The position numbers were made by a program, and so were the translations under genes. A stretch of DNA of 64,000 nucleotides, from positions 12,695-76,694 of the forward strand of contig JANYAY010000010.1 of the NCBI GenBank assembly GCA_025361065.1, in the 5' to 3' direction. Below are positions 2 to 15,698 of the stretch, piece by piece; the stretch's first letter is position 1; each line of letters opens with the position of its first letter. Source of the DNA: Deltaproteobacteria bacterium (lineage in GTDB: Bacteria; Desulfobacterota; Syntrophia; Syntrophales; Smithellaceae). The notes under the pieces were generated by a model. The model was not told where the DNA came from and ran no database searches. It worked only from the letters and a program-made list of their open reading frames with translations.

Positions 2-3000
2 AGCAGCAAGCCCGAAAGAAAAATAAAAAGGGCCACCCAAATTGTCAATTGCAACAGCCCTCTGAAGCAGAATAAGCAGAACTCCTATTACGGTTTTGCC
101 AGGCCTGAGGTTGTTGAGGCAATTATTAAAAACAAGATATCCACCGGGAAAGTGCTGGAAATTGGCTGCGCCGGTGGAGCTACCGGTAAGAATCTGAAAG
201 AGCGGCTGCCGGTGCAATATTATGTGGGAATTGATATTTCACCGGAAGCAGCCGAGATTGCCAAAAATTATTTAGACAAAGTTATTGTCGCCAATGTCGA
301 AGAGACGGATTTGGCTTCTGAATATGGACTAAAACCCGGAGAATTTGATTTACTACTGGCATTGGATGTTCTGGAGCATCTCCATGATCCCTGGGATATT
401 CTGGCCGAATTGGCAAGTTACATCAAACCCGGCGGTTACGTTGTGGCCTCTTTACCCAACATTCAGAACATAACCATCTTGCAGGATTTGATAAAGGGTA
501 ACTGGCAATATCAAGATGCCGGAATTCTCGATGCCACTCATTTACGCTTTTTCACACTGGAAACAGCAAAAAAAATGTTCAGCGGAGCCGGGTTAACAAT
601 TAGGGGCATTGAGCGTGTCATTAATCCATCCCTTGATCTGGAGAAGCTAAAAGAATCGGGAAATAAATACAGCAAAGATAACGTGGAAATAGCCAATTTG
701 ACAAAAGAGGAATTTCTGAATTTATTTACTTATCAATATATTCTAATCGTCCAAAAAGCGCCCTCTAATGATAATCTCTATAAGGCTACTGCAAATAGCG
801 CAACTTCTAAGACAGACTTTTTATTGCCCCGGTTCGATAATAAAGAATTTGCACCAGGGCGGACATCTCTTGTCATCCTGACATTTAACCAGTTGGAATA
901 TACAAAAAAGTGCGTAAAGAGCATCAGGAAACATACCCCGGAAGACCATGAAATAATTTTTGTTGATAACGGCTCCACCGACGGAACCGTAAAGTGGCTA
1001 ACAAAACTGGTACAGGAAAATGATAATTATCGCTTGATTGAAAATAAGCAGAACCTTGGTTTTGCCAAAGGCTGTAATCAAGGAATTGAGACCTCCAATG
1101 GAGAAAATATTCTACTATTGAATAATGACGTTGTCGTTGCAAAAGACTGGCTTTCCGGACTATTGGAATGCCTGAAACACGCACCCGATGCCGGCATCGT
1201 CGGCCCGATGACCAATAACATCAGTGGACCTCAACAGATAAATGATGATTCCTATCGATCCGTTGATTTCTTGGAAAAATACGCGGTACAGTTTCTTGAA
1301 AAATATCTTCATCGCCGGATTCCCTTTAGAAGGGTCGTCGGGTTTTGCATGCTTTTCCAGCGCGGACTGGCCGAAAAAATCGGCCTGCTTGATGAAAACT
1401 TCGGAACTGGCAATTTTGAAGATGATGATTTTTGTTTAAGGGCCGCACTGGCCGGTTATAAAAATTATATTGCGGGAGATATCTTTATTCATCATTATGG
1501 AAGCCGCAGTTTCATTGGCAACAAAATCAATTACGGTGCGGCAATATCTGATAACAAAAAAATTATCGATAAGAAGTGGGCACTCAATACGGCAAGCCCC
1601 GAAGGAAAGAAACTCGCGGTTTTGCGAGCCACGGAATTGGCCGATGTTTACTATGCAAAAGGCAAAACAGATCAGGCCGTGGAGGCTCTTATCAGTTGCA
1701 TCAAATATGCACCGGATGATCCTCAAATATACTATGAACTGACGCGCCTTTTCATCGAAACAAAAAGATTTTCCGAGGCATGGGAAATTGTCGGTACTAT
1801 GCCGGAGGCAGCTAAAAATCATCTGAAAGGTATGGAATATGCGGGCTACGCCAAAGAAGGCCTGGGGTTTGATGATGAAGCAACCGCATACACTGACAAA
1901 ATGTTGTCTCATGATGAATACTACCCTGCGGCGCTGAATCTGAAAGGTGTTTTGGCGTATAAAAAAGGCGATAAAGAAAAAGCCGCGGATTATTTCCGGA
2001 AAGCCATCGACTCTGATCCTGGTTATGGTGAAGCACACACCAATCTTGGCGTACTCTACTGGGGTACGGATAAAAAAGATGAAGCGCTGTCGCAGCTGCG
2101 CCAAGGCTTTATCCTCTCTCCGACCGTACCGGATTGCAGCTCGATTTATTATACTGTTATATCATCTTTGGGCCTGTTTATTGATGCGGAGGCCAACCTC
2201 CGGGAAGTCTGTAGATTATATCCCAACAATAAAAATCTGACTTTTCTATATATTGATACTCTTATCCAGCTAGGCAAGTTGAATTCCGCTATGCTCCGGA
2301 TAGAAGATTCGCTTGCGTTGTTTGGTCCGGACGATGGTATTCTCAACGCGGCCCTGGCTGTCCGGGAAAAGATCGGCCCCCTCCAGATTGAAAAAGCATC
2401 CCAAAAAGGAACTTTGTCGCTTTGCATGATTGTCAAAAATGAAGAAAAGCACCTGGTCCGCTGTCTGAAAAGCGTCCGGGATGTTGTGAACGAAATTATC
2501 ATCGTTGATACAGGCTCAACTGACAAAACCAAAGACATCGCGCGGGTCTTCGGGGCAAAGTTGTACGAGTTCCCGTGGACAGGTGATTTTTCCGCTGCCC
2601 GCAACGAATCGCTCATTCACGCCGCAGGCGATTGGGTGCTGATTCTCGACGCTGATGAAGTCATCTCCTCACTCGATCACAACGAATTGAAGAACCTTAT
2701 TCGAAAGCGGACGTCTAAGCCAATTGCCTATTCTATCGTCACGCGAAATTACATCAATAACATGAGCGTGCTCGGTTGGACGCCCAACAAAGGCGAGTAT
2801 CCCGAAGAAGCTGGCGCGGGTTGGATTCCAAGCCCAAAGGTACGGCTGGCACCGCGAAGAAAAGACGTCTTCTTTTCCAATCCTGTTCACGAGTTGCTGG
2901 AAAATTCATTGGCAACGCAAAAGATACCGGTTGCCGCCTGCAAAATTGTTGTTCACCACTATGGAAAGCTGGATGTCAGGAAAGACTCTCAAAAGGGCGA

Positions 3001-3658
3001 AGATTATTATCTGCTGGGGAAAATTAAATATGAAAGCGCCCCGACTAACGTAAAATATATTTTTGAACTCGCCAAGCAAGCCCATCTGCTCAGAAAATAC
3101 GATGAAACCGTTGAATTATGGACAAAACTTCTTTCGCTGATCGAGGACAAGCCGGAATCAGATGATTACAAACTTATCAAACGAATTTCCGTCGGCGATC
3201 CGATCGCTGAAATTTATGTTCAGCTTGCCTCAGCCGAGTTGTTGCTTGACCGTTACGAGCAGGCTCTCTATTCGGCAACTCAGGCCATGAGAACCGACAA
3301 AAAGCTTAAAGAATATGTTTCTATTTATGCCTATTGCGAAATCATTGCCGGATCGGTGAAAAAAGCGTCAACTGCTTTACAGGAACTGCTCGATGAAACG
3401 CCTGATTACCTCCCTGCATTGCTTGTGCAATGCACTGCGAGTTGCCTGGAAGAAAATAATAAAAAAACAAAGGAACTGATGTTAATGCTCAGAAAGAAAA
3501 ATCCCAATGTAAACAGTCAACTCAATAAAACCGCAAGACAGCTGCACACCAACGGCAGAAAGGATCAGGCGCTAAGTCTTCTTACCGCAATGATGGAAAA
3601 CAAAATTAATAACAAGGAAACGGTGGATCTGCTTGAAGAGTTGCAGAAAGAGCAGTAG
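2..3658 (+). CDS. Multidomain SAM-methyltransferase / GT2 glycosyltransferase / TPR / second GT2 / TPR protein. The 5' end runs off the window.
   Basis: The frame is open from nt 2, so the ORF-track start at 152 is an internal GTG. VLEIGCAGGATG matches class I methyltransferase motif I. Two GT2 cores are present: SLVILTFNQ..FVDNGSTDGT..NNDVVV..FEDDDF and LSLCMIVKNEE..IIVDTGSTDKT..ILDADE. TPR-like helical repeats lie between and after them. Confidence 0.8.
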   Translation, partial: SSKPERKIKRATQIVNCNSPLKQNKQNSYYGFARPEVVEAIIKNKISTGKVLEIGCAGGATGKNLKERLPVQYYVGIDISPEAAEIAKNYLDKVIVANVEETDLASEYGLKPGEFDLLLALDVLEHLHDPWDILAELASYIKPGGYVVASLPNIQNITILQDLIKGNWQYQDAGILDATHLRFFTLETAKKMFSGAGLTIRGIERVINPSLDLEKLKESGNKYSKDNVEIANLTKEEFLNLFTYQYILIVQKAPSNDNLYKATANSATSKTDFLLPRFDNKEFAPGRTSLVILTFNQLEYTKKCVKSIRKHTPEDHEIIFVDNGSTDGTVKWLTKLVQENDNYRLIENKQNLGFAKGCNQGIETSNGENILLLNNDVVVAKDWLSGLLECLKHAPDAGIVGPMTNNISGPQQINDDSYRSVDFLEKYAVQFLEKYLHRRIPFRRVVGFCMLFQRGLAEKIGLLDENFGTGNFEDDDFCLRAALAGYKNYIAGDIFIHHYGSRSFIGNKINYGAAISDNKKIIDKKWALNTASPEGKKLAVLRATELADVYYAKGKTDQAVEALISCIKYAPDDPQIYYELTRLFIETKRFSEAWEIVGTMPEAAKNHLKGMEYAGYAKEGLGFDDEATAYTDKMLSHDEYYPAALNLKGVLAYKKGDKEKAADYFRKAIDSDPGYGEAHTNLGVLYWGTDKKDEALSQLRQGFILSPTVPDCSSIYYTVISSLGLFIDAEANLREVCRLYPNNKNLTFLYIDTLIQLGKLNSAMLRIEDSLALFGPDDGILNAALAVREKIGPLQIEKASQKGTLSLCMIVKNEEKHLVRCLKSVRDVVNEIIIVDTGSTDKTKDIARVFGAKLYEFPWTGDFSAARNESLIHAAGDWVLILDADEVISSLDHNELKNLIRKRTSKPIAYSIVTRNYINNMSVLGWTPNKGEYPEEAGAGWIPSPKVRLAPRRKDVFFSNPVHELLENSLATQKIPVAACKIVVHHYGKLDVRKDSQKGEDYYLLGKIKYESAPTNVKYIFELAKQAHLLRKYDETVELWTKLLSLIEDKPESDDYKLIKRISVGDPIAEIYVQLASAELLLDRYEQALYSATQAMRTDKKLKEYVSIYAYCEIIAGSVKKASTALQELLDETPDYLPALLVQCTASCLEENNKKTKELMLMLRKKNPNVNSQLNKTARQLHTNGRKDQALSLLTAMMENKINNKETVDLLEELQKEQ

Positions 3659-3718: not shown

Positions 3719-4048
3719 TTAAGGCGCAAACATTTCCGCCAGCGTTGAGAGGACTTCTTCCTGGATATCTGCATCAATGCTGCCAAGTTTTTTAACAAGT
3801 CTGGTTTTATCTACCGTTCTTATTTGATCCAAAACAATCTTGCCTTTTTTCCCTTTAAATGAACATGTTACACATGTGGGGTAATTCCGGCCTTTCGTCG
3901 TCATGGGCGCAACGATGGCTGTCGCAATAAATTTATTCATTTCATCAGGTGATATGATGAGACAAGGCCGCGCTTTGCCAATTTCACTGTCGATGGTCGG
4001 ATCAATATTAATCAAAAAGACATCAAAGCGCTTGATTACCATACCCAT
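3719..4048 (-). CDS. mazF: MazF/PemK-family endoribonuclease toxin
   Basis: 109 aa. The pattern RFDVFLINIDPT..GKARPCLIISPDEMN..APMTT is typical of PemK/MazF. Its start overlaps the stop of an upstream AbrB/MazE-like frame. Confidence 0.85.
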   Translation of the reverse strand: MGMVIKRFDVFLINIDPTIDSEIGKARPCLIISPDEMNKFIATAIVAPMTTKGRNYPTCVTCSFKGKKGKIVLDQIRTVDKTRLVKKLGSIDADIQEEVLSTLAEMFAP

Positions 4049-4289
4049 TCATCCTCATCCCATCGTGATGCGGCTGGCTGGACCGCATCCAGCGCTTTAT
4101 CATCGCCGTTTTCAGCCATCAGGCGGAATTGATTCTCCCAGTCTTCGCGCGGACAAGAAACCCGGCAGATGATAATTTTTTCGTCTTCGACTTCCAATTC
4201 CACTTCATTGCCCAGCCGGCTTTGATCTAAAATGACTTTGGGAAGGCGTGTTCCTGAGAATTTCCGATGCGAATAATATTTGCCCTCAT
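4036..4289 (-). pseudogene. mazE: MazE/AbrB-type antitoxin interrupted by a 1-nt frameshift
   Basis: The ATG at 4289 follows AAGGAG. Frame 1 reads MRANIIRIGNSQ and then hits TAG after 20 codons. The neighbouring frame continues GTRLPKVILDQSRLGNEVELEVEDEKIIICRVS...WDEDEWVW*, ending inside the mazF start. The span is 254 nt, which is 85 codons minus 1 nt. Adding one G to the GG run near 4252-4256 restores IRIGNSQGTRLPK, a SpoVT/AbrB signature. Confidence 0.75.
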
Positions 4290-4319
4290 ACTTTCATGCT
4301 CCTTGATCAATGTGATTAC

Positions 4320-4348
4320 ATTATAATTACATTTTAAAAATAGGTTAA
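4320..4348 (-). promoter_or_regulatory. Putative sigma70 promoter/operator of mazEF
   Basis: Minus sense reads TTAACC-17 nt-TATAAT. The -10 is embedded in the direct repeat ATGTAAT-TATA-ATGTAAT, about 30 nt upstream of the mazE ATG. Confidence 0.5.
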
Positions 4349-4507
4349 GAGAAAAAGAGTGGATGGGCTTTGTACAAAAAAGAGAAATGATTGGGACATT
4401 GTTCCCCGCTGGCGGGGAGTAGGGGACTGTTTTTTCGGTTGCTTTCCACTTCCGTCACAGCGTGGCACCTCCGCCCGGAGGACATCAGATGAAAAACCAG
4501 ATGGAAT

Positions 4508-4888
4508 TTACTCCGCCGTACTCCCGCGCAGCCCCGCCGCCATATTCAAATTGATGTCAATAATAATTTTGAGTCTTTCCGGCTTGGGATTGGCCATCAC
4601 TTGAATAATTCTATTATCAATAAAAACACTCAGGGCCAGAATATCCTTACGAACCTGGATGGGCAGGGGATTGTTGTCTTCCACCAATTCCGCCTGCAAA
4701 ATACTCCAGACGCGCTGATTAAACTCCAGCGCTTCGCTTAGTTTTTTCTCACGGTCAGGGGTATCCCAGTTTTCCTGACAATTGGACAGGAGAATTGCGC
4801 AACGGGTCAGAGCGCCAGCTTCGATCTCTCTTCCGGACATATTGTTAGTCTGTGCCGTTTTATAAGCTTCAAGTTGCAGTGCGTACAC
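4508..4888 (-). CDS. flaF: Flagellar biosynthesis regulator FlaF
   Basis: LEAYKTAQTNNMSGREIEAGALTRCAILL and the overall length resemble FlaF, and it sits directly downstream of flbT. I prefer the GTG at 4888, which lies 9 nt after AGGAGG. The ORF-track ATG at 4915 lies inside flbT. Confidence 0.75.
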   Translation of the reverse strand: MYALQLEAYKTAQTNNMSGREIEAGALTRCAILLSNCQENWDTPDREKKLSEALEFNQRVWSILQAELVEDNNPLPIQVRKDILALSVFIDNRIIQVMANPKPERLKIIIDINLNMAAGLRGSTAE

Positions 4889-5267
4889 GTTTGATAACCT
4901 CCTGTTCATATTCAATGAGTTTTTTCGTCAGTTTCAGCGCCGGGTAATACCGTTCACTGAGAATTTCTTCGCTGATCTCTTTTAAGAGCGGCTTTCTGCT
5001 GGGAGCGGCTACGGCCACATCCTTAACCAGTTCCCAAAATGTTTTGTGGTGCTCCGGCAGATTTTTACCATCTATATACATCAGCTGTATGGCGAAATAA
5101 ATTTTCTTGCAAGGCGTGTCCGCCGAAGCCGGCGTCATAATATCTTTTCCCCGCAGGATCGGCACATCGTTTTCGACTATAAAAGTGCTTTTGGCTTCGC
5201 CATTTGTTATCACGGCGCCGCCAATAATGAATTTTTCATGCACTTTCAGTGTTATCTTGAGTGACAT
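4869..5267 (-). CDS. flbT: Flagellin translation regulator FlbT
   Basis: 132 aa. MSLKITLKVHEKFIIGGAVITNG...ILRGKDIMTP...IYFAIQLMYID matches the FlbT N-terminal pattern, and it is paired with flaF. Confidence 0.8.
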   Translation of the reverse strand: MSLKITLKVHEKFIIGGAVITNGEAKSTFIVENDVPILRGKDIMTPASADTPCKKIYFAIQLMYIDGKNLPEHHKTFWELVKDVAVAAPSRKPLLKEISEEILSERYYPALKLTKKLIEYEQEVIKRVRTAT

Positions 5268-5298
5268 ACACCCTTCCCTGTTTTCCCTTTAGAATAAA

Positions 5299-5724
5299 TC
5301 AGACTTTCAAATCAAGAACATTGCCCAAACTAATTGTCTTTTTTACCGCGGACACGTTGTTTTTAATTATACCGTCTTTGTCCGAGGCAGCCTCTCGGCG
5401 TGAGGTAATATCTTCCGCATTTGTCGTTGTATGGTCCTGCCGGACGCTTGTCTTCTTTGTTTCCACGGAAGCAGCTGATGAACTATCCGACTTTGCCGGG
5501 ATAATGTCATAAATCCCCTGTGTATGCCCCAGTGGAAATAATGGTGGAGAGTACACACGGGTCGCATTGGGGCTATCGGACACGGTTTTAAGATCTGCTT
5601 CAGACGAAGTTTTATCAGGCAGGGAAGAATTGCTTTCTGCGGAAATTTCCCCTTTTCCTGAGCCTGATTTTACCTCAACGGCACGAAATAGTCCTTGAGC
5701 AATCTGATTATTTTGAATATTCAT
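5299..5724 (-). CDS. Hypothetical Ser/Thr-rich protein between flagellin and flbT
   Basis: 141-aa ORF with AAGGTG 9 nt upstream of the ATG. It looks low-complexity and disordered. It lacks the FlaG C-terminal pattern and I recognise no family. Confidence 0.5.
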   Translation of the reverse strand: MNIQNNQIAQGLFRAVEVKSGSGKGEISAESNSSLPDKTSSEADLKTVSDSPNATRVYSPPLFPLGHTQGIYDIIPAKSDSSSAASVETKKTSVRQDHTTTNAEDITSRREAASDKDGIIKNNVSAVKKTISLGNVLDLKV

Positions 5725-5751
5725 AGTCTAAACACCTTATCGGTGATTGTT

Positions 5752-5778
5752 GAGGCGGGAGAATTCTTCTCCCGCCTC
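5752..5778 (-). terminator. 12-bp GC-rich hairpin just after the flagellin stop, with no U-tract
   Basis: GAGGCGGGAGAA-GAA-TTCTCCCGCCTC is a perfect stem 17 nt downstream of the flagellin stop. It could be a terminator, an attenuator or an mRNA 3' stabiliser. Confidence 0.5.
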
Positions 5779-5794
5779 AATTCTCAGATCATGT

Positions 5795-7129
5795 TTATTG
5801 GAACAGTTTCAATACCGACTGGGCTGCTTGCGCCGAGAGGCTCAGAGCTGTTGTACTCAGAGACTGACGGGTTTGCAGCATCAGCATGTTGGCGCCTTCT
5901 TCGTTGGCATCGGCCAGTGTCAGCAGATCCGAACCTGCATTCAGCGTGTTAATCATCTGCGTCGAGAAATTCTGACGAACGGTAATAATACTCAAGTTAC
6001 CGGAAAGTTTGGAAGCTTCCGAACGCAGAGTATTTGACGCAGTATCCAGAGCCGTAACGGCGGCATCAATGGCTGCAGGTGTAGCACCCCAGACAGCTGC
6101 ATCAGCCGCAGTAATAGCCAGGCCCGTTGTTGATGCATCAAAGCCTTGCACGCCCAGAGTAGTTCCTTCAAACTTAACGGTCAGAAGGTCTGAACTCAAA
6201 AGGTTTTTGCCCTTATACCCGGAGTCTTCGGCCAACTCATCCATCTGAGTACGTAGCGTATTGTACTGATCCGCGATTGACGTCATTTCAGCGGACGGCA
6301 CATAAGCATAAGTCACCTCGACGGCGCCGATGGTCGATACCGTTACCGCGGTTTCTCCCGTCACTCCGCCCGTAATGGCAGTATCCAGAGCGGTGGCAGC
6401 GTCCGTAGCGGTTGCTCCGGTCCCATTATACGCCGTTGCTCCAATTGTGAAGGTCATCGAAACGGAAGCAAGTGCACCATCAACTTCTGATTCAGCATAG
6501 CCCGTCATATCGGATGTGATATCGGCCAGCGCAACATCCTCTTCATCAAGCGAAATGATCACATTGCCGCCGGACAAGGTTGCCGAATAGCCCAAGTCAG
6601 TCAGAGTGGTGTTGGCCATGATGGCATCAACCAGCTCTCCAGCGTCGCCAAACTGGCCATCCGCAGCAGTTGCACCAACAGTAAGAACTGTAAAGCCCTG
6701 ACCGCCAATCGTGAGCATCTCGTCATCTACAATAACGCCGAACGTGATGGAAGCATTTACATAGTTGGTCTCTTCCAGATCCGCATCGCCGGTTGTCGCA
6801 TCGGGAGTCGTGCCGGCTGCCGCGCTCTGTGCAGACTGCGCAAGACCTTTGGCCTGTTCAATCAACGCGCTGAGTGATGTAATACCTTTATCGGCGGCGG
6901 CAATCGTCTGAACGGCTTGCCCCATAGAATCCTTCAAACCATCGATAATAGAAGCACGGGCATTCAATGTCTGCGCTGCAAAAAAGGATACCGGATTGTC
7001 GATAGCCGTGTTAACTTTTTTGCCTGAAGAAAGGCGGTTTTGTGTACGATTTAAAAGGTCAACTGTGTTTTGCAGTGATAAAAGATTGGATCTCATTCCT
7101 GCGGTTAATGATATGTCATTAATAGCCAT
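5795..7129 (-). CDS. fliC: Flagellin
   Basis: The N-terminus reads MAINDISLTAGMRSNLLSLQNT..LNRTQNRLSSGKKVNTAIDNP. The C-terminus reads LADANEEGANMLMLQTRQSLSTTALSLSAQAAQSVLKLFQ. The ATG at 7129 lies 9 nt after AAAGGAG. The ORF-track TTG at 7165 is an upstream over-extension. Confidence 0.95.
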   Translation of the reverse strand: MAINDISLTAGMRSNLLSLQNTVDLLNRTQNRLSSGKKVNTAIDNPVSFFAAQTLNARASIIDGLKDSMGQAVQTIAAADKGITSLSALIEQAKGLAQSAQSAAAGTTPDATTGDADLEETNYVNASITFGVIVDDEMLTIGGQGFTVLTVGATAADGQFGDAGELVDAIMANTTLTDLGYSATLSGGNVIISLDEEDVALADITSDMTGYAESEVDGALASVSMTFTIGATAYNGTGATATDAATALDTAITGGVTGETAVTVSTIGAVEVTYAYVPSAEMTSIADQYNTLRTQMDELAEDSGYKGKNLLSSDLLTVKFEGTTLGVQGFDASTTGLAITAADAAVWGATPAAIDAAVTALDTASNTLRSEASKLSGNLSIITVRQNFSTQMINTLNAGSDLLTLADANEEGANMLMLQTRQSLSTTALSLSAQAAQSVLKLFQ

Positions 7130-7280
7130 GATTTGTTTCTCCTTTTCTAGGTTGTTTTCTGACAATTCTTGTCAGAGGTTTTTTGTTTTGACGAAAAAAC
7201 TACTTTTCTTTGTAGATGTTTACCTGAGCTTATTAAATTCTCCTCCTTTCATATATTTTTATAAACATTCGTTAAATTCA

Positions 7281-7307
7281 TTATCGGATATTCGCCGCAA
7301 TACTTTA
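7281..7307 (-). promoter_or_regulatory. sigma28 (FliA) promoter of flagellin
   Basis: Minus sense reads TAAAGTAT-N11-TCCGATAA against the consensus TAAAGTTT-N11-GCCGATAA. It leaves a leader of about 145 nt. Confidence 0.8.
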
Positions 7308-7331
7308 GCGGTTTAAAAAAAATGCCAGGGG

Positions 7332-7361
7332 ATTAGGCTGAAGACTGAAGACTGAAGGCTG
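7332..7361 (+). repeat. GGCTGAAG-family repeat forming the left boundary of the TA cassette
   Basis: The sequence is ATTAGGCTGAAGACTGAAGACTGAAGGCTG, a tandem CTGAAGR heptamer. The core TAGGCTGAAGA is inverted at 7974-7984. Confidence 0.7.
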
Positions 7362-7391
7362 CGTGTCTTACACACATTTGTTTAATATTGA

Positions 7392-7420
7392 TTGACATAA
7401 AAATATTGTCGCCATATAAT
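7392..7420 (+). promoter_or_regulatory. Consensus sigma70 promoter of the TA cassette
   Basis: TTGACA-17 nt-TATAAT exactly, followed by AAGGAGAG and the ATG at 7443. Confidence 0.75.
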
Positions 7421-7442
7421 TTTAATAAAAAAGGAGAGCTCT

Positions 7443-7631
7443 ATGAATGTTGCAAAGGTAAAAATTGAAAACATATTGGAGAAACTACCCGCAACAATTG
7501 ACGTGGAAAATTTTATCTACCAGCTCTATCTTCTTGAAAAAATAGAAGAAGGTGAAAATGATATAAGAGAAGGAAAGGTATTATCCCACCAACAGGCCAT
7601 TGAAAGGATATCCGGAAAGTGGCAAAGCTGA
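7443..7631 (+). CDS. Putative type II antitoxin, assigned by position upstream of the ParE/RelE-like frame
   Basis: 62 aa. The C-terminus DIREGKVLSHQQAIERISGKW resembles small antitoxins found with ParE/RelE toxins. Its stop overlaps the toxin GTG. Confidence 0.6.
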   Translation: MNVAKVKIENILEKLPATIDVENFIYQLYLLEKIEEGENDIREGKVLSHQQAIERISGKWQS

Positions 7632-7924
7632 TATGGGCCCAAAAAGCAATAGAGTCTCTGGAAGCAATTCATGATTACATCTCCCGTGATTCAATCCGAT
7701 ATGCAAATTATCAAACTCGTAAAATTATCTAATCCGTCGAGCGTTTAAGCATTTTCCCAGAATCCGGGAAAATTATTCCGGAGTTTGGACAATCTATTTA
7801 CAGACAAGTTATTGTTGGCACATATCGCGTCATTTACAGGTTTGATGGATCACTGAACACATTATTCATAATTAATATCGTGCATGGCAGTCGCCTATTC
7901 ACTGGTTTTTATACGAAAAAATAG
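7619..7924 (+). pseudogene. ParE/RelE-family toxin with an in-frame TAA
   Basis: From the GTG at 7619 the frame reads MAKLIWAQKAIESLEAIHDYISRDSIRYANYQTRKII*SVERLSIFPESGKIIPEFGQSIYRQVIVGTYRVIYRFDGSLNTLFIINIVHGSRLF. The stop is at 7730-7732, and the same frame carries ParE-like motifs on both sides of it. Confidence 0.75.
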
Positions 7925-7971
7925 CAATAGGAATTAATTCTTTGCAGCAAAGGATCCAACACTCTCTCGTA

Positions 7972-7988
7972 CTCTTCAGCCTATTAAT
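7972..7988 (+). repeat. GGCTGAAG-family repeat forming the right boundary of the TA cassette
   Basis: CTCTTCAGCCTATTAAT is the reverse complement of the left-boundary core. It is nearly identical to 35355-35368. Confidence 0.65.
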
Positions 7989-8003
7989 TATTCACCTTTT
8001 CAC

Positions 8004-8031
8004 TCAAGTTTCCTGCATCACCTGCCGATAA
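8004..8031 (+). promoter_or_regulatory. sigma28 (FliA) promoter of the TPR gene
   Basis: TCAAGTTT-N12-GCCGATAA. Confidence 0.7.
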
Positions 8032-8064
8032 TTTCAACAAATGGTTCAATAACCTTCTCTGTTC

Positions 8065-8135
8065 GTCATACCGGCGCAGGCCGGAATCTAGGAAGCACCT
8101 AAATAATACTGGATACCGGCCTGCGCCGGTATGAC
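8065..8135 (+). repeat. Perfect 20-bp GC-rich inverted repeat in the leader of the TPR gene
   Basis: GTCATACCGGCGCAGGCCGG (8065-8084) pairs with CCGGCCTGCGCCGGTATGAC (8116-8135) across a 31-nt spacer. Confidence 0.85.
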
Positions 8136-8181
8136 ATAATTGTTTGTTATATAGTTTGGCAAAGGTCTCTAGATATTAATT

Positions 8182-9438
8182 ATGAGCGAAAATTTCATAA
8201 CATCCTATACCAATCAATATACCGTATCATTATATACAACCAATTATGGAGTATCCACAGATTCTATAAATAACTTATTTACTTCAACCTATGCCAGAAC
8301 TCAGGACAGACTGGATGCTCTTTCCGGAACGATTTTGGTCCAGGGAATCGATTATTTTCAAGACGCCAACTATGACCAGGCCATTAAATCTTTCAAGCAG
8401 GCTGCCGCTCTTTCACCTTCTTCCGACAATGCCGCAAAAGCATACGGCTATATCGGACAGGCTTATGCCAGACTGGAAGAAACGGATAAAGCGATTAACA
8501 CCTACAAGGAAGCCATCCGGCTTTATCCGGCAGACGACACGTTCTACATAGCTCTGGGCGATATCTATCTGGAAGAGGATATGCTGGAGGAAGCAACCAC
8601 GGCATATCGACAGGCGGTCAATATCAATTCCAATAACGCCGAGAGTCAGTATTCTCTGGGACAAGCCTATCTTAACGCCGGCGAACTGGACAAGGCCAAT
8701 GATCGATTTTCCGAGATTGTCCGGATCAGCCCCAACAGTGCAACGGGCTACTATGGATTAGGCCAGTCTGCCCGACAGGACGGTGATCTGGAAAACGCAG
8801 TTTCTCAATTGACCAAAGCCATCAGCGTCAATAAGGACTTTGAACTGGCGCACCTTGAACTGGGTTATGCCTATGCCGATATGGGTGAATTTCAAAAAGC
8901 TCAAGATGTTTTGGCGACACTGGAAGTTAAAGAATCAACTAAAACAACAGATCTGGAAAATTATATTACTCGGGTCACTCAGCCCCGAATAAATATGGTT
9001 CTTAGTTTGAATGGATTCAACACCAGACTTCCGGCGCATACGGAAATCGCCAAGCTAAGTTCCACCCTGCAAGATGCAAATAAATCAAAACTTTTTTCCC
9101 TGAGCTTTACCTTTTCCAAAGAGATGGATCAGGCATCCATAATCAATCCCTATAACTGGAAAATATCCCGGGCCACAATCCAGGAAAACGGCGGCGTGTA
9201 TAATGGCGGTCTGATCCCGCCTTCCACGGAAGCCACAATTCTTCCTAAACCCACATATGTTACCTATGACGCAGACTCTGATAAAGCTATCGTCTATTTT
9301 CGGCTTTATCAAAATGAAACCGCCGATGCAACCATTGACCCCAATCATATCGTCTTCAAATTCTCTGGCATTGATGCCTACAGCAAGAGTATGGATACGT
9401 CCGCCGATGAATACAGTGGGTTTTCCAAAATAGCATAA
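8182..9438 (+). CDS. TPR-repeat protein with a beta-rich C-terminal domain
   Basis: 418 aa. It has about six TPR-like units (e.g. AKAYGYIGQAYARLEETDKAINTYKEAIRLYP), followed by a non-helical region of about 140 aa. Confidence 0.75.
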   Translation: MSENFITSYTNQYTVSLYTTNYGVSTDSINNLFTSTYARTQDRLDALSGTILVQGIDYFQDANYDQAIKSFKQAAALSPSSDNAAKAYGYIGQAYARLEETDKAINTYKEAIRLYPADDTFYIALGDIYLEEDMLEEATTAYRQAVNINSNNAESQYSLGQAYLNAGELDKANDRFSEIVRISPNSATGYYGLGQSARQDGDLENAVSQLTKAISVNKDFELAHLELGYAYADMGEFQKAQDVLATLEVKESTKTTDLENYITRVTQPRINMVLSLNGFNTRLPAHTEIAKLSSTLQDANKSKLFSLSFTFSKEMDQASIINPYNWKISRATIQENGGVYNGGLIPPSTEATILPKPTYVTYDADSDKAIVYFRLYQNETADATIDPNHIVFKFSGIDAYSKSMDTSADEYSGFSKIA

Positions 9439-9579
9439 TTATTATGTCTTCGATTTATCAATGGAAGGGAAGGCAGACATGAGTAAAACTACAGCAATGC
9501 CATCTTTAGCAATATCAATTAATCTTTCCGGAAGGCAAGAGCAGATTAGTTCTCAATCTTACAATGATCAGTCTCCGGT

Positions 9580-9789
9580 CTATTTTCTTCCTGTTTTACT
9601 ACTGCTATCATCTTCCGGCACCTGACTTTTCTCCTGAGTATGTTGGTCAATATCCTGCCGGTGGACGGCAATATTGCGCGGCGCTTCAACGCCGATCCGA
9701 ATATATTTTCCCTTGCTCTCCAGAATAGTTATTTTAATGTCGTCGCCGATTGTAATCGATTCACCAAACTTCCGTGTCAGGACAAGCAT
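9580..9789 (-). CDS. csrA: Carbon storage regulator CsrA
   Basis: [39 protein letters not shown] is the canonical CsrA core, followed by a C-terminal extension of about 20 aa. Confidence 0.95.
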
Positions 9790-9810
9790 TTTGCCTCCAG
9801 CAAATATTTA

Positions 9811-12564
9811 TTAAAGGTAAGTCATAATCGTCATTTTCCCAATTTGCGCAGCCAGGTTATATGACGCCTGCAAAGCTATCTGTTGCATTTGAAAAGATGT
9901 TATTAACTTTGCCAAATCTGCATCTTCAATACCGGACTTCATTGATGCTAATTGTTCGGTAAAAGCTGTATGGTTCGTACTGGTAAGATCTAAAGAACTC
10001 GCTTTGGCGCCGGCTTCTGTTTGCTTCTGCAATACTTGCGTTTGAATATTTTTTAAATCCGCGATTTGTGCGGACACTGCAGTCATATCATGAGCAGTCA
10101 AGGCCGATTTGAGCGCATTTAGTGTCTTCAGCAGATCAACACTACCCGGACCATGGACCGTAACGGCGCTGACTTGCGACGATGCACCTGCTGTAATCGT
10201 AAAAGAGGCCGTGTTATTTGCATTCCACTTGCCCGATAGATCCAACGTTACGTCATTTGTTCCGTCATTATCGGCATCAATGGTAACTGTGGTAGCGCTA
10301 GTCGAAGTAATAACCATATTCGGATATTGAGAGTTACTCGTCAGCGACCAGCTTCCGGCGGAGGCGCCGCGGGTAAGAGTAATCGTATCGTCCACTGTCA
10401 AACCGGCCCCCGCGCCAACGACGGAAGCAGCGGCAATAGGCCCATTGGCCGCAGTAAAGGCGGAAGATCCTTTGATGTTATAAACAAAATTATTGCTTTT
10501 ACCGACTTGCACGGTCAATTGATCATCGTTACCCCGGTAATAACCGGCGGAATAAGCGTTCACCGTAAACAAATCATTAGCGGTAAGATGCTGAGAACCG
10601 GAATCGTTAATCGTCATATTTATACCATCGCCCAAAGTTATAGACGTGGCTGTTGTTGAGGCAATTGTGCCGAAATCGAGTGCATTGACAGGGTTGGTGG
10701 TAGTAAGGGTCATTGCCAACTGGCTTGCTCCAGTTGTGTTATCCGTTACTTCTATTCTTCCATCTGCAGTAATCGAAGCGGTGCCTCCTAAAGTCGTCCC
10801 AATTTTGTCGAGCAATTCCTGCACCGTGCCTGTAACCGCATTGTTTATTGTATATGTCCCTGCTACGGCGGTGCCGTCATGCTTTTTCCCGGTAATGACT
10901 ATAGTGGTACCATCCTGAACATTGGCGCCGGTAATTTTGTTCCAGACTGTTGCAGCTGTAATGGCGGATCCGCCGGCCGTATTCACTTTGCTCCCCTGCA
11001 GCGCCTGAGGCGGAAGAGTTTGCTCCGTTCCCCAGGTTTTACCACCATCAATAGACATTTTATAAGTTGCCGCAGCCAATGTTCCGCCTGTAGTAATTTT
11101 TACGGCATATGTTTTGTTTTCTATTCCCGTATAAGTGCCACTGGACGCTACAGTGCCGTTAAATGTATTGGCTGTCGCCGCGAAGGCAGCGTCAATACTG
11201 GTAGCGATTGCATCCAGCGTAAATGAATCACCGGCAGCAAGATCCTTTGTACCGGCGGTAAAGGTCATTTTTATCCCGTCACCTAAAGTTGTTTGTGCAG
11301 ACAGGCCAGATTGTGTTGAACCCCAAATTATACCGCCGTCGGCGGAAATTTGATAAGTTGCCGCAGCCAATGTTCCGCCTGTAATAATTTTTAAAGCATA
11401 TGTTTTGTTTTCCATTCCCGTATAAGTGCCACTGGAGGTGACCGTGCCGTTAAAATTATTAACCGGTGTTGCGGTTGGGTTTCCAATACCGGCAGCAGTT
11501 GCATTCACGGTAAATGAATCATTGGCAGTAAGATCCTGTGTGCCGGTAGTAAAGGCCAATGTTAATCCGTCAGTACCTAAAGCACTGCTTCCGGGGTTGA
11601 GAGCAGTTGTAATGTCAGTTCCGTTCCAACTTGTACCACCATCGGTAGAATATTGATATGTTGCAACACCCAACACTCCGGTATTGGTTATCTTTACAAG
11701 ATACGTTTGGTCTGTTGTTCCCATATAAGTGCCACTAGACTGAATGGTGCCGTCAAATATATTGGTTTGTGCTGCGTTTACGTTTCCGGTAATGGCAGCG
11801 GTAGCATTTACAGTATAGGAATCATTGGCAGAAAGATTATGAGCGCCGGCGCCGGGCGTAAAGGTCATGGTAACGCCCAGTCCATCCCCAAAATCTATCG
11901 GGGCGGAAAGATCTGTTTGTGTCGCACTCCATGTTGTTCCGCCATCGGCAGACACCTGATACGTTGCGTCGGCCAAATCGGCTGCCGTTCCTCCATCAAT
12001 GATTTTTACAGCATACGTTTTGTTTACTGTCCCCGTATAAGTGCCAATGGATGTGACCGTACCGTCAAAATTATTAACCGGCGCTGCACTTACATCTCCA
12101 ATCTTACCAACGGGTGTTGCTGAGAATGGCGCGACATCAGTTTTTGATCCGCCAAACAAATAACTGTCGCCTTGTTTGGCATTCATCAGTGATAAGGCGT
12201 CATCAATCATCGCAGAGAGAATCGCGGCATTAGAATCCATTGTTTCATCAGACGCCACAGCGCTGGACTGGGAAGCCGCAATATCCTGGGCCTGGGTAAT
12301 CATTTTACCAATACTGGTAAAATTTGTGTCTGTTAAAGATAACCATGTTTGGGTGTTGGTGATATTGGTTTGATATTGCTCTATGGAGGCCATTGCCGAA
12401 GTGTAATTCAATATATTGCCGGCGCCGGTCGGATCATCCGACGGCCTGTTGATATTTTTTTGGGTAGATATCTTTTCCATCAGGTTGGCGGATTGTCCTT
12501 GAACCTTAAACAAACTATTGGTAATAGTATTAAATTTCATATTTTCCGTAACGCGGTTAATCAT
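9811..12564 (-). CDS. flgL: Hook-filament junction protein FlgL (HAP3), unusually large at 917 aa
   Basis: The N-terminus reads MINRVTENMKF..INRPSDDPTGA. The C-terminus reads DADLAKLITSFQMQQIALQASYNLAAQIGKMTIMTYL. It sits directly downstream of flgK. Confidence 0.9.
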   Translation of the reverse strand: MINRVTENMKFNTITNSLFKVQGQSANLMEKISTQKNINRPSDDPTGAGNILNYTSAMASIEQYQTNITNTQTWLSLTDTNFTSIGKMITQAQDIAASQSSAVASDETMDSNAAILSAMIDDALSLMNAKQGDSYLFGGSKTDVAPFSATPVGKIGDVSAAPVNNFDGTVTSIGTYTGTVNKTYAVKIIDGGTAADLADATYQVSADGGTTWSATQTDLSAPIDFGDGLGVTMTFTPGAGAHNLSANDSYTVNATAAITGNVNAAQTNIFDGTIQSSGTYMGTTDQTYLVKITNTGVLGVATYQYSTDGGTSWNGTDITTALNPGSSALGTDGLTLAFTTGTQDLTANDSFTVNATAAGIGNPTATPVNNFNGTVTSSGTYTGMENKTYALKIITGGTLAAATYQISADGGIIWGSTQSGLSAQTTLGDGIKMTFTAGTKDLAAGDSFTLDAIATSIDAAFAATANTFNGTVASSGTYTGIENKTYAVKITTGGTLAAATYKMSIDGGKTWGTEQTLPPQALQGSKVNTAGGSAITAATVWNKITGANVQDGTTIVITGKKHDGTAVAGTYTINNAVTGTVQELLDKIGTTLGGTASITADGRIEVTDNTTGASQLAMTLTTTNPVNALDFGTIASTTATSITLGDGINMTINDSGSQHLTANDLFTVNAYSAGYYRGNDDQLTVQVGKSNNFVYNIKGSSAFTAANGPIAAASVVGAGAGLTVDDTITLTRGASAGSWSLTSNSQYPNMVITSTSATTVTIDADNDGTNDVTLDLSGKWNANNTASFTITAGASSQVSAVTVHGPGSVDLLKTLNALKSALTAHDMTAVSAQIADLKNIQTQVLQKQTEAGAKASSLDLTSTNHTAFTEQLASMKSGIEDADLAKLITSFQMQQIALQASYNLAAQIGKMTIMTYL
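11014..12078 (-). repeat. Tandem ~97-codon repeats inside flgL, about 3.5 units
   Basis: The protein units start NNFDGTVTS.GTYTG..NKTYAVKI and each contains SxDGGxxW. At DNA level 11062-11172 and 11353-11463 are roughly 90% identical by eye, offset by 291 nt. Confidence 0.85.
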
Positions 12565-12582
12565 CGGCGAAAGCCTCCTTCC

Positions 12583-14262
12583 CTATTGCCCCAGCGCAAT
12601 TAAAGTGTCCATCATATCCGAAACAATCTTGGTCACCCGGCCGGCGGCATTATACGCCATCTGATACTTAATCAGGTTCAACATCTCTTCGTCCAGAGAA
12701 ACACCGGAAAGCATTTCTCTTTGACTGTTATTCTGAGTAGCCGTTGCCTGTTCGCGAGTCAAAACCGTGGCCGAGCTTGCAACATCCTGGCCCATTTTGG
12801 CCATAAAGGCGCTGTAATACCCACTTATACTTGTTGTATTATCTTTCTTCGTGAGGGAAAATGAAAGAGTATCGTTATTCGCCCAGGTGCCGGACAAATT
12901 TAAAGTTATATCGGCGGTCTCATTTCCGTTCAGATCGAGAGTAACACTCTTATCGTCAGCAGATAATACGCGCAGCGACGAATATCCGCCGTCCGCAAAG
13001 ACCGTCCAATCCGCGGAAGATGCACCACGCGTCAGTGTTATGGCTGCGGTTGTACTTTTATATACCTGTCCGATATTATTAATCTGGCCTGATGCAAAAG
13101 CGGTAACCGAAGATGTAGTAACCCTTTCTAAAGAGGCATACATTTTATCGTCTTTAATCGCAGTCATCGCGGTGGCATTATCACCATCAGCATTGAGAGT
13201 GGCAGAAGCGGCAATTTTTCTCGTATCGGCAACTATTGCCGCACTGACTTCCATATCCTTTGCTTCCGCAGCCGGCTTGAAAAAAACATCCCCGATATTG
13301 CCATCCTGATCGTATCCGGCCATATGTTGAGAGTTTACTTTATTTATAATACTGGAAGCCGTCTGATTTAACTCGTCAATGTAATCCGGCAGGATAACAT
13401 CCCTGATATTCAATAAACCACCCAACTCACCACCTTGAATATCTTGATTCAACGGATTGTTCACGTCGTCGGTAAAAACAATGTCATTTAAATTAGAGTT
13501 GGCAGAATTAGTCTGCACCTGCAATTGCCATTTATTATCCCCTTCCACAAGAGACTTGCCGTTGGAGGGCAGATAAATGTATAGTGACCCGTCACTTTGC
13601 TCAATATAATTAACATCAATTATTGAACTTATTTTACCCAAAAGCTCCATTCGATTGTCACTAAGCGACGTTGCCTGGCCGCCGGCACTTTCGGTTCTGA
13701 CGATTTCCGCATTTAAAGCGGCCATGTCACTCAAATATCCGTTTAATTTTTCAACATCATTGGCTATGGTTTGATCAGCGTTACTTTGGATGCTGGACAG
13801 TGCATCCGCTCTTGAATTAATAACAGCGGTCAGATTTTGCGCTGTCGAGATAACTACATTCCTCTCAGCTTCTCCTGACGGATTGGCGGAAAGATTGTCC
13901 CAGGCGCTCCAGAACCGGCTTAGCACATCATTAATACCGCCTCCATTGCTTTCATTTAAGACACCTTCAACTTGCGTCAATAAATTATTACGCGCCGTGG
14001 CACTGCCCACAGACGAATCCTGAACAACTATTTGAGAATCCAGATATTTATCAAAAATTCTCCGTATCTCAGATATTTTTACCCCAACCTGTTCCTGACT
14101 CGAATTAGGATCTTTCGTTCCCACAGATTCAAATACCGGAGTAAGTCTGGAATAGCCGGGCGTATTGACATTGGCGATATTTGAACCGGTAACATTAATT
14201 GCCGTCAAATTACTAAGAATAGCTTGTTTTGCTGTATATAAGACACTGCCAATATTAGACAT
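12583..14262 (-). CDS. flgK: Hook-associated protein FlgK (HAP1)
   Basis: The N-terminus reads LYTAKQAILSNLTAINVTGSNIANVNTPGYSR. The C-terminus reads LDEEMLNLIKYQMAYNAAGRV. Confidence 0.95.
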   Translation of the reverse strand: MSNIGSVLYTAKQAILSNLTAINVTGSNIANVNTPGYSRLTPVFESVGTKDPNSSQEQVGVKISEIRRIFDKYLDSQIVVQDSSVGSATARNNLLTQVEGVLNESNGGGINDVLSRFWSAWDNLSANPSGEAERNVVISTAQNLTAVINSRADALSSIQSNADQTIANDVEKLNGYLSDMAALNAEIVRTESAGGQATSLSDNRMELLGKISSIIDVNYIEQSDGSLYIYLPSNGKSLVEGDNKWQLQVQTNSANSNLNDIVFTDDVNNPLNQDIQGGELGGLLNIRDVILPDYIDELNQTASSIINKVNSQHMAGYDQDGNIGDVFFKPAAEAKDMEVSAAIVADTRKIAASATLNADGDNATAMTAIKDDKMYASLERVTTSSVTAFASGQINNIGQVYKSTTAAITLTRGASSADWTVFADGGYSSLRVLSADDKSVTLDLNGNETADITLNLSGTWANNDTLSFSLTKKDNTTSISGYYSAFMAKMGQDVASSATVLTREQATATQNNSQREMLSGVSLDEEMLNLIKYQMAYNAAGRVTKIVSDMMDTLIALGQ

Positions 14263-14265
14263 GAC

Positions 14266-14814
14266 TTAGCCTTCCTTATGCAAAAATGTGCCGTTATTAT
14301 CCGTTGATTTAATTTTGCCGCACTGCAGGTAAACTGATCCCGAAGACATAATTGAATTTATAAAATCCAGAGAGCTCTTGATGTTGGTCATAGAAGCCTC
14401 CAGCAAATCCTGATTTGCTGCATTTAATGCACTAATTTCTCCGGCAATTAATACCAATTCATCTCTAATTTCCTCTATTTCCTTCCTTTGTTCATGACCT
14501 GCATAACCGGCTAATTGAGAAAGTTTGAGGTCATTTGTTCTTATATCGAGACTCCGGGCAATCTTCTTTAAAATATTTGTTCTTGCTTCCGCCAGCATTC
14601 GCGCTTTCAGAATTATATTTTCCTTAAGCGCATTGGTATGGTTAAATTCGCCAAGATTTGGTTTTATTAAAATCTTTTTTTCGCCAATAATTGTACTTTT
14701 CAGCTCCTGATAAACTGCTAATTCTTTTCTTAATATCTCTATCAGCGAGGTAAAAATATATTCGCAGGAGTTCTCTTCTTGCGAGTTTGTCAAGCTTATG
14801 CTCTGCTCTAACAT
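14266..14814 (-). CDS. flgN: FlgN-like export chaperone
   Basis: 182-aa helical protein between flgM and flgK, which is the conserved flgM-flgN-flgK order. The N-terminus has the LxxELxxYxxL pattern. Confidence 0.65.
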   Translation of the reverse strand: MLEQSISLTNSQEENSCEYIFTSLIEILRKELAVYQELKSTIIGEKKILIKPNLGEFNHTNALKENIILKARMLAEARTNILKKIARSLDIRTNDLKLSQLAGYAGHEQRKEIEEIRDELVLIAGEISALNAANQDLLEASMTNIKSSLDFINSIMSSGSVYLQCGKIKSTDNNGTFLHKEG

Positions 14815-14964
14815 AGCAATATCCTTATATTAACTTAGCGGATAAATTTAACGTTGGTGTGTCCGCCCAAAGGCTGACCTGAGAAAAGATATAGGCTGGT
14901 CTTCCTGATAGGAAGAATAAAAGATGGGAAACATCTATTAATTCAGAATTATTTTGCCTCTTTT

Positions 14965-15273
14965 TTAAGCAAAAAGATCAATGATCGATTCTCCCACCAT
15001 TTTCCCGGCAATCTTTTCGGCACTAACGTTGTATGTTCCCTTTTCTACCTGACCCTTGATTTCCTGTACTTTTTGTTCACGTACGTCAGGTACCTCGGAC
15101 AACGCATTTTTTACTAGCTGACTGTCTTTTGCCTGGGTGGAAATATCAACCTTTTCTTCTGTTTTTATTGTCGCACTGGCGACCTGCTTATCAGAATTGG
15201 CTACATAGTTGTCGTTTTTCTGATAATGCTGAACCATTTGCGAACTGACATCTTTAACATCGGAAATTTTCAT
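14965..15273 (-). CDS. flgM: Anti-sigma28 factor FlgM
   Basis: The C-terminus DVREQKVQEIKGQVEKGTYNVSAEKIAGKMV is the FlgM signature. The ATG at 15273 lies 9 nt after AAGGAG. The ORF-track start at 15330 would include the promoter. Confidence 0.85.
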   Translation of the reverse strand: MKISDVKDVSSQMVQHYQKNDNYVANSDKQVASATIKTEEKVDISTQAKDSQLVKNALSEVPDVREQKVQEIKGQVEKGTYNVSAEKIAGKMVGESIIDLFA

Positions 15274-15307
15274 ATAATGCTCTCCTTGAAACTTTATCTT
15301 ACTCCAC

Positions 15308-15335
15308 CTATCGGCAAAATCAACAAACAACTTAA
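15308..15335 (-). promoter_or_regulatory. sigma28 promoter of flgM
   Basis: Minus sense reads TAAG-N15-GCCGATAG, about 35 nt upstream of the flgM ATG. Confidence 0.65.
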
Positions 15336-15338
15336 ATC

Positions 15339-15680: not shown

Positions 15681-15698
15681 GGCAGTCCCTCAATACAT

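Follow-up and report, generated by a model that had tools for sequence, protein, structure and literature searches.

Organization of the locus

We analysed a stretch of 64,000 nucleotides, hereafter the window, which occupies positions 12695-76694 of contig C22 in the genome of a bacterium of the family Smithellaceae, order Syntrophales (3.95-Mb assembly, 186 contigs, 97% complete). It carries a flagellar locus in which the genes are, in order, csrA, a tetratricopeptide repeat (TPR) gene, a small toxin-antitoxin insert, the flagellin gene, an open reading frame (ORF) for a protein of 141 amino acids, flbT, flaF, mazEF and a giant gene. CsrA-FliW and FlbT-FlaF are known from separate model organisms and are called analogous, as two solutions to the problem of restricting flagellin synthesis to times when export is possible. 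Here csrA stands beside flbT and flaF and the genome has no fliW, and the comparison reported below suggests that the locus is probably a hybrid left by the replacement of one filament module by another, with CsrA as a functional remnant.

The identities of FlaF, FlbT and CsrA given by the original prediction, which was made from the letters of the window, are borne out by matches to the hidden Markov models (HMMs) PF07309, PF07378 and PF02599, and those of FlgL, FlgN and FlgM hold as well. The Pfam cut-offs are 27 bits for PF02599, 27 for PF07378 and 23.6 for PF07309, and the NCBIfam cut-offs 91 bits for NF009435, 73 for NF002469 and 70.1 for TIGR00202. CsrA is above the cut-off in all its three families (PF02599 79.5 bits, NF002469 83.1, TIGR00202 74.6); FlbT remains under the strict cut-off of the NCBIfam equivalogs (127 vs 153).

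As predicted, csrA lies at the end of flgM-flgN-flgK-flgL, its start 21 nt past the flgL stop, and is preceded by a good Shine-Dalgarno sequence. The flgL-csrA junction is kept in the window's genus (g1), in its sister genus (g5, also Smithellaceae) and in relatives that have FliW. Because a sigma-28-like promoter stands in front of flgM and terminator prediction places no candidate site from flgL to csrA, we regard csrA as the final member of a late operon, which likely comprises flgM-flgN-flgK-flgL-csrA. By the same promoter readings, csrA and the flagellin gene probably belong to a common sigma-28 regulon.

Distribution of FliW, CsrA and FlbT

No FliW was found in the whole window genome, where the best PF02623 score was only 11.7 bits and where FliW proteins of relatives, used as queries, retrieved nothing; the absence noted for the window in the original prediction extends to the genome and, with 0 of 116 genomes positive, to the family Smithellaceae. 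In the 75 positive relatives the same HMM scores 98-144 bits, with weaker fragments added by two split genes. FliS and FliD are absent from the genome too. They were sought (PF02561 and PF07195) in 10 same-genus or FlbT-lineage genomes, including the window's own and with FlbT in 9 of the 10, and were missing from all of them; both were present in the two FliW-type relatives examined. The window genome has one copy of csrA.

The census covered 339 genomes of the order, 116 of them Smithellaceae and most of them metagenome-assembled genomes (MAGs). CsrA is present in 101, FliW in 75 and FlbT in 66. All 75 genomes with FliW also have CsrA, and outside the Smithellaceae CsrA is accompanied by FliW in 75 of 75 cases. 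CsrA without FliW occurs in 26 genomes, all of them Smithellaceae (6 in genus g1 and 20 in genus g5), and 15 of these 26 have FlbT, so that the combination described as unusual in the original prediction is indeed restricted to this family within the order. Only G286, G294 and G333 have FlbT together with FliW. These three genomes also carry CsrA, and each is, at an estimated contamination of 5-7%, either a mixed bin or a genome that truly possesses both modules. Seven genera contain both module types, in different genomes. MAGs assigned to Methanobacterium and Verrucomicrobiota also contained contigs with the FlbT cassette, a sign that mis-binning is frequent.

Gene order around csrA

In the FliW-type genomes G034 and G040 the order is flgI-flgJ-flgM-flgN-flgK-flgL-csrA-fliW, and the opposite strand encodes a FliT/FlgN-like gene, fliS, fliD (999 amino acids), a canonical flagellin, Maf and other glycosyltransferases. 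The expectation that fliW would lie between flgL and csrA therefore does not apply in this order, since in the Syntrophales relatives fliW follows csrA.

In the window genome (G000) and in G005, G009, G010 and G011, flgL-csrA is followed by the FlbT cassette. In genus g5, as in G001 and a second G011 contig, the genes directly after csrA are instead orf70 (68-71 amino acids) and those for a REC-GAF-HD-GYP response regulator and an SLT transglycosylase; the FlbT cassette of genus g5 has another place in the genome, at a distance of megabases in G161 and G162, which are one-contig assemblies. The same trio is found in the window genome at C22:8190-10883 (-), just left of the window and sigma-28-driven. 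Because the trio lies there, the 11.4-kb cassette sits between csrA and orf70; the layout of G005 is identical. The trio is kept with csrA even in G001 and G160, which have no FlhA. Other arrangements are flgL, the TPR gene and the rest of the cassette without csrA (G003 and G015), and flgL followed directly by the flagellin gene (G028). The second contig of the MAG G011 (C71) carries flgI to flgL, csrA and orf70; its CsrA groups with those of genus g5, and it is probably foreign to that bin.

The orphan CsrA protein

We compared 31 FliW-paired CsrAs of Syntrophales with 19 Smithellaceae CsrAs that have no FliW, here called orphans. The paired proteins are 75-90 amino acids long, the orphans 57-74. 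Y48 is present in 31 of 31 paired proteins and in none of the 19 orphans, I/V51 in 31 of 31 and 2 of 19, N55 in 31 of 31 and 6 of 19; a second amphipathic motif, LxDIWxxL, is present in the former and absent in the latter. V51 and N55 bind FliW in Campylobacter jejuni by experiment, and N55 also does so in Bacillus subtilis (PMC7829508). At these docking positions the window CsrA has T51 and S55.

The RNA-binding residues of strands beta1 and beta5 (L2, L4, R6, K7, I/L40, V/I42, R44 and I47) are kept, with conservative changes only, in the window CsrA and in 19 of 19 orphans. As judged from codon substitutions, the RNA-binding core of the orphan CsrA is under purifying selection: the ratio of nonsynonymous to synonymous differences per site (pN/pS) of the core is 0.09-0.2, with synonymous sites near saturation, and the csrA genes of G000 and G009 differ by 0.038 nonsynonymous (dN) and 0.555 synonymous (dS) substitutions per site. 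The tree separates the orphans, as a single group, from the FliW-paired proteins (support 91/96).

AlphaFold models, both of them single-sequence monomers of low to moderate confidence, predict for the window CsrA beta strands and no helix after residue 40 (predicted local distance difference test, pLDDT, 55-66) and for the FliW-paired control from G040 helices at 44-57 and 65-76. The 20-amino-acid tail of the window CsrA, which the original prediction had singled out, does not qualify as a FliW-type extension: Y48, I/V51 and N55 are missing, close relatives differ in the length and sequence of the tail, and a non-helical structure is predicted for it.

Intact csrA genes also occur in G001, G145, G151 and G160, all without FlhA and presumably non-flagellated; the deletion of flagellar genes in G001 reaches as far as csrA. 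No csrA remnants were detected in the csrA-less relatives. A HMMER search for CsrA among 1.84 billion representatives was uninformative here, its top matches being dominated by tandem multi-CsrA proteins; many of the best matches had 100-360 amino acids, with two to four CsrA-like stretches in tandem.

The FlbT/FlaF cassette

In FlbT-type genomes a fixed block is composed of the TPR protein, flagellin, the 141-amino-acid protein, flbT, flaF and, on the opposite strand, the giant glycosyltransferase. The original prediction had seen the adjacency of csrA and flagellin as interrupted by a TPR gene and a toxin-antitoxin cassette; this is right for the latter, as the two toxin-antitoxin pairs are the only local inserts in the locus, and wrong for the TPR gene, which is a conserved member of the cassette. 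Its orthologue adjoins the flagellin gene in G003, G005, G009, G010, G011, G015, G017, G161 and G162, and also in named Smithellaceae and Desulfosarcina loci. No anomaly of GC content was seen over the cassette.

The 141-amino-acid protein, conserved between flagellin and flbT, has no match in Pfam or NCBIfam. Homologues occupy the same slot in 10 Smithellaceae genomes and in 2 Thermodesulfovibrionales loci, and share an N-terminal MNI..IQ..QGL, a central YPPFFP(I/L)G.TQ and a C-terminal PG..L.(L/V)K(V/I) motif; we refer to it as the YPPFFP protein. The homologue of the giant protein adjoins flaF in nearly all cassettes, those of other phyla included, and by analogy with the TPR-glycosyltransferase FlmG (PMC7591256) it is a candidate flagellin glycosyltransferase. 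By analogy with Caulobacter, FlbT would be a translational repressor of the flagellin mRNA and FlaF a flagellin secretion chaperone in place of FliS.

FlaF and FlbT had been described as best known from the Alphaproteobacteria. They are not confined to them, because the same block is found in named loci of Smithellaceae, Thermodesulfovibrionales/Nitrospirota, Desulfosarcina (Desulfobacterota) and Bdellovibrionales; neither csrA nor fliW lies within 10 kb of any of 22 such named loci.

The coordinates of all these features are collected in Table 1. Between the toxin-antitoxin insert and the TPR gene, a near-perfect palindrome of about 70 nt occupies positions 8065-8135 of the window; a microRNA model gives its two strands the same score, a spurious match.

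Table 1. Features of the flagellar locus, in positions of the window
Feature	Position	Strand	Remarks
Giant methyltransferase-GT2-TPR-GT2-TPR protein	2..3658	+	start at C22:12144, 551 nt left of the window
flaF	4508..4915	-	PF07309 105 bits, 3e-30; NF009435 121.9 bits
flbT	4869..5267	-	PF07378 146 bits, 6.9e-43, full-length match; single copy in genome
141-amino-acid protein with YPPLFP motif (family motif YPPFFP)	5299..5724	-	conserved gene between flagellin and flbT
Flagellin, 444 amino acids	5795..7129	-	from ATG at 7129; single copy in genome
Leader element: stem-loop and CCUAGAAAAGGAGAA box	7137..7176	-	alignment of 27 leaders, several phyla
Upstream AAGGAGGA, no start codon behind it	7241..7248	-	single-stranded in predicted fold
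Sigma-28-type flagellin promoter, TAAAGT-N14-CCGATAA	7281..7307	-	conserved at -167 to -180 in relatives
TPR protein, 418 amino acids	8182..9438	+	Pfam TPR families; convergent with csrA
csrA, 69 amino acids, last gene of likely flgMNKL operon	9580..9789	-	PF02599 79.5 bits
flgL, 917 amino acids	9811..12564	-	TIGR02550 190.9 bits
flgK	12583..14262	-	ORF; orthologues syntenic in all relatives
flgN	14266..14814	-	PF05130 73 bits
flgM	14965..15273	-	from ATG at 15273; PF04316 67.7 bits, TIGR03824 56 bits
Sigma-28-like promoter of flgM, TAAG-N15-GCCGATA	15309..15335	-	read from sequence

The flagellin gene and its leader

The window flagellin is of a divergent, FlbT-associated type that scores 33 bits with Flagellin_N and 19 bits with Flagellin_C and has PRK12688 and PRK14708 as its best NCBIfam matches, in contrast to the canonical flagellin of the FliW-type genome G040, with 123 and 92 bits respectively.

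Its leader contains a stem of 7 bp at 7158-7176 with the loop AGAAU, followed at 7137-7151 by CCUAGAAAAGGAGAA with the Shine-Dalgarno sequence inside. In the alignment of 27 leaders 91% of the cells of the stem are paired and 5 of the 7 pairs change on both sides, against 18-44% pairing in slid controls. A covariance model gave one match per FlbT-cassette flagellin and none elsewhere in 1.02 Mb, FliW-type loci included, and the CCUAGAAAAGGAGAA box occurs a single time in the window's genome. No family of Rfam 15 matches the element. The stem-loop and CCUAGAAAAGGAGAA, in the stretch 7127-7190 (-) of the window, together look like an undescribed cis-regulatory RNA motif, and, because the element travels with FlbT, it is a likely candidate for the FlbT operator. 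Anderson and Gober are said to have found in 2000 that FlbT control of Caulobacter fljK depends on a stem-loop.

Besides the upstream AAGGAGGA, the leader has a second GGA, in the AAGGAG of the Shine-Dalgarno sequence, unpaired in the predicted fold. The upstream AAGGAGGA does not track csrA, because GGAGG stands at the same place in the csrA-less genomes G002, G003, G015, G017 and G028, and no leader feature was found that distinguishes csrA-positive from csrA-negative genomes. Sister species without csrA, and other phyla too, have the GGA sites and the stem-loop just as well; these features follow FlbT, not CsrA. The claim that two post-transcriptional systems converge on this mRNA is accordingly not sustained by the comparison.

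Just upstream of the flagellin sigma-28 promoter, window positions 7334-7375 (-) hold arrays of CAGYCTT/CTGAAGR heptamers. G009, G010, G011 and G017 have such arrays at the same place, and G001 has them at another junction, ahead of orf70. They may mark the termini of a small mobile element or be scars of recombination.

A model for the replacement of the filament module

The explanation that we consider probable is that a replacement of the filament module gave rise to a hybrid locus, in which CsrA is a functional leftover independent of FliW. As the comparison shows, the other Syntrophales families have a late operon flgM-flgN-flgK-flgL-csrA-fliW with fliS, fliD and a canonical flagellin gene beside it. 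The same comparison shows that the Smithellaceae are without this distal part and that their filament is supplied by a self-contained FlbT cassette, which in the window genome lies right after csrA, parting it from the sigma-28-driven orf70, REC-GAF-HD-GYP and SLT genes.

From what is described in Caulobacter (PMC7591256), FlaF would chaperone flagellin to the export gate, and FlbT together with cytoplasmic flagellin would repress translation at the leader element until export starts; FlbT and FlaF would in this way take over the job of FliW-CsrA and FliS. As the genome encodes one flagellin only, the role of co-repressor would fall to this structural flagellin. csrA would be the surviving half of the old CsrA-FliW switch, from which, as the residue comparison indicates, the docking-helix residues and the extension have been lost, and, if the operon is as we read it, CsrA would be made with the late flagellar genes. 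Because the docking residues are lost, the RNA-binding residues are kept and the gene is placed among late genes, CsrA is most likely a FliW-independent RNA-binding repressor. csrA-less sisters carry the same cassette and leader, so flagellin control in this lineage does not depend on CsrA; taken with the persistence of csrA in genomes without FlhA, this is a hint that CsrA has targets other than flagellin.

Several observations weigh against this explanation. Because most genomes are MAGs, single absences may be assembly gaps, and the missing helix is read from the AlphaFold models qualified above. The core of the orphan CsrA is on average 65% identical to the FliW-paired CsrAs of the order and 64% identical to Pseudomonas RsmE; as core identity cannot separate descent from transfer, the vertical origin of csrA rests on the conserved flgL-csrA junction. 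The retention of csrA in four genomes without FlhA is suggestive, and no proof, of a wider role, and csrA is missing in most non-flagellated Smithellaceae. Seven genomes of genus g5 (G144, G148, G158, G167, G168, G170 and G172) have FlhA and flgL-csrA with neither FlbT nor FliW; either the contig with their cassette was left unbinned or they have a third filament module. Finally, the two GGA sites of the flagellin leader are accessible in the predicted fold, and CsrA may still act on it.

Alternative explanations

This last point leads to dual control, in which CsrA would act on the upstream AAGGAGGA and the GGA of the Shine-Dalgarno sequence, FlbT would act on the stem-loop, and both would repress the single flagellin mRNA, whose leader would so combine the signals of two post-transcriptional systems. 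We regard it as possible though rather improbable. Two leader GGA sites, one of them within the Shine-Dalgarno sequence and both single-stranded in the predicted fold, the probable sharing of a sigma-28 regulon by csrA and the flagellin gene, and the intact RNA-binding residues of CsrA all speak for it; however, the same sites with the same spacing occur in the five csrA-less genomes named above and in other phyla, no feature of the leaders differs with the presence of csrA, about 105 nt separate the two sites, there is no known way for a CsrA without FliW to sense flagellin, and csrA persists in genomes without FlhA. Slightly more doubtful still is the view that the Smithellaceae CsrA represents a second independent escape from FliW, outside the Gammaproteobacteria, with the beta core only and with a new antagonist or a shared flagellin leader. 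That a new antagonist has taken the place of FliW, be it a small RNA sponge, a cassette protein (FlaF, FlbT or the YPPFFP protein) or orf70, is unlikely when considered by itself. Outside the Smithellaceae CsrA is never without an antagonist gene, FliW accompanying it in all 75 genomes, and in genus g5 orf70 directly follows csrA, in the slot of fliW; but each of FlbT, FlaF and the YPPFFP protein is also met in genomes without csrA, a scan of the genome for GGA clusters gave no convincing CsrB-like RNA, and an Rfam search of window positions 4000-16000, 12 kb with csrA inside, gave no match other than, at a relaxed threshold, a spurious one to a miRNA. The best CsrB-like candidate, at C150:16018-16177 (-), consists of about three copies of the 14-nt tandem repeat UUAGGAGUGGAGAG, with 12 GGA in 160 nt; it was judged unconvincing, as it lies where a glutamine-amidotransferase-like gene ends, next to an inserted four-helix-bundle gene, within a sugar-modification cluster. 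As a substitute for FliW, orf70 was also rejected: it occurs in 39 of the family's 116 genomes, at least 15 of them csrA-less, is absent from the csrA-positive G145 and G151, has its own sigma-28 promoter and weakly matches the DVU0524 FlgM-associated family.

It is very improbable that csrA is a decaying relic without function. The gene has been cleanly lost in the flagellated G002, G003, G006, G015, G017 and G022, and the C-terminus of the orphan CsrA is degenerate, as decay would have it; yet the frame is intact in 26 genomes of two genera, the low core pN/pS stands against nearly saturated synonymous sites, all RNA-binding residues are conserved and the Shine-Dalgarno sequence is good. Hardly credible at all is a FliW that is present and was missed, through incomplete assembly or divergence of the protein. 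The 186 contigs and 97% completeness of the window assembly leave some room for it, but the 116 FliW-less genomes of the family include the one- or two-contig assemblies G160, G161 and G162, neither an HMM that scores so high in 75 relatives nor the FliW proteins of those relatives find anything here, and the docking residues of CsrA are lost.

Significance

The ancestral CsrA-FliW pair is reported to have been lost several times (PMC13443453), and the loss of FliW as such is therefore not new. What is new is the resolved exchange, with both partners visible in one order and a hybrid of FlbT/FlaF with a leftover CsrA, together with the predicted helix-less form of CsrA and the conserved leader element. 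The near-perfect mutual replacement of the two modules in an order of 339 genomes, even within genera, is strong comparative support for their equivalence. If the reading of a second escape were true, the near-exclusive alternation of FlbT/FlaF with CsrA-FliW-FliS-FliD inside single genera would be direct comparative evidence that these two systems of flagellin homeostasis are interchangeable, and with a shared leader one mRNA would be read by two unrelated translational repressors.

In the explanation by module replacement, the orphan csrA would be a natural intermediate: once the gene is freed of FliW, the docking helix decays, the RNA-binding core stays, and loss of the flagellum need not end in loss of the gene. 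The case is relevant to the question of how the Gammaproteobacteria may have come by their global CsrA, which does without FliW. The analysis also yields two products, a candidate FlbT operator RNA that occurs across phyla and is not in Rfam, and the uncharacterised YPPFFP protein of the cassette.

Comparison with known systems

The locus resembles the CsrA-FliW-flagellin switch (Hag in B. subtilis, FlaA in C. jejuni, and the Geobacillus structure 5DMB) in that csrA ends the flgK-flgL operon near the flagellin gene, the CsrA core and its RNA-binding residues are present, and the flagellin Shine-Dalgarno sequence contains a GGA with a second GGA upstream. It differs from it in that there is no fliW in genome or family and FliS and FliD are missing, in that CsrA has neither Y48, I/V51 and N55 nor the C-terminal extension bound by FliW, and in that the GGA sites are there whether or not a genome has csrA.

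With the FlaF/FlbT(-FljJ) and FlmG system of Caulobacter crescentus it shares flbT and flaF directly downstream of the flagellin gene, a leader stem-loop near the Shine-Dalgarno sequence, the lack of FliS, FliD and FliW, and TPR and glycosyltransferase genes alongside. The host here is instead a member of the Desulfobacterota with a sigma-54/sigma-28 hierarchy in place of CtrA; there is a single flagellin and no FljJ-like co-repressor paralogue, an extra gene with the YPPFFP motif is present, and csrA lies 4.3 kb away.

The gammaproteobacterial Csr/Rsm system, composed of CsrA/RsmE and the small RNAs CsrB, CsrC, RsmX, RsmY and RsmZ, is alike in that its CsrA is short and works without FliW, as the window CsrA most likely does, and RsmE (2jpp, 62.5 bits) is the best match of the window CsrA among solved structures. 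Unlike in that system, no sponge RNA was found here by the scan for GGA clusters or by Rfam around csrA, and the gene is still inside a flagellar operon; moreover, the gamma-type protein keeps the EIYQRIQ helix, with Y48 and I51, and the window CsrA is without it. Because RsmE-like structures keep this helix, the window CsrA can be regarded as reduced further than the gamma type.

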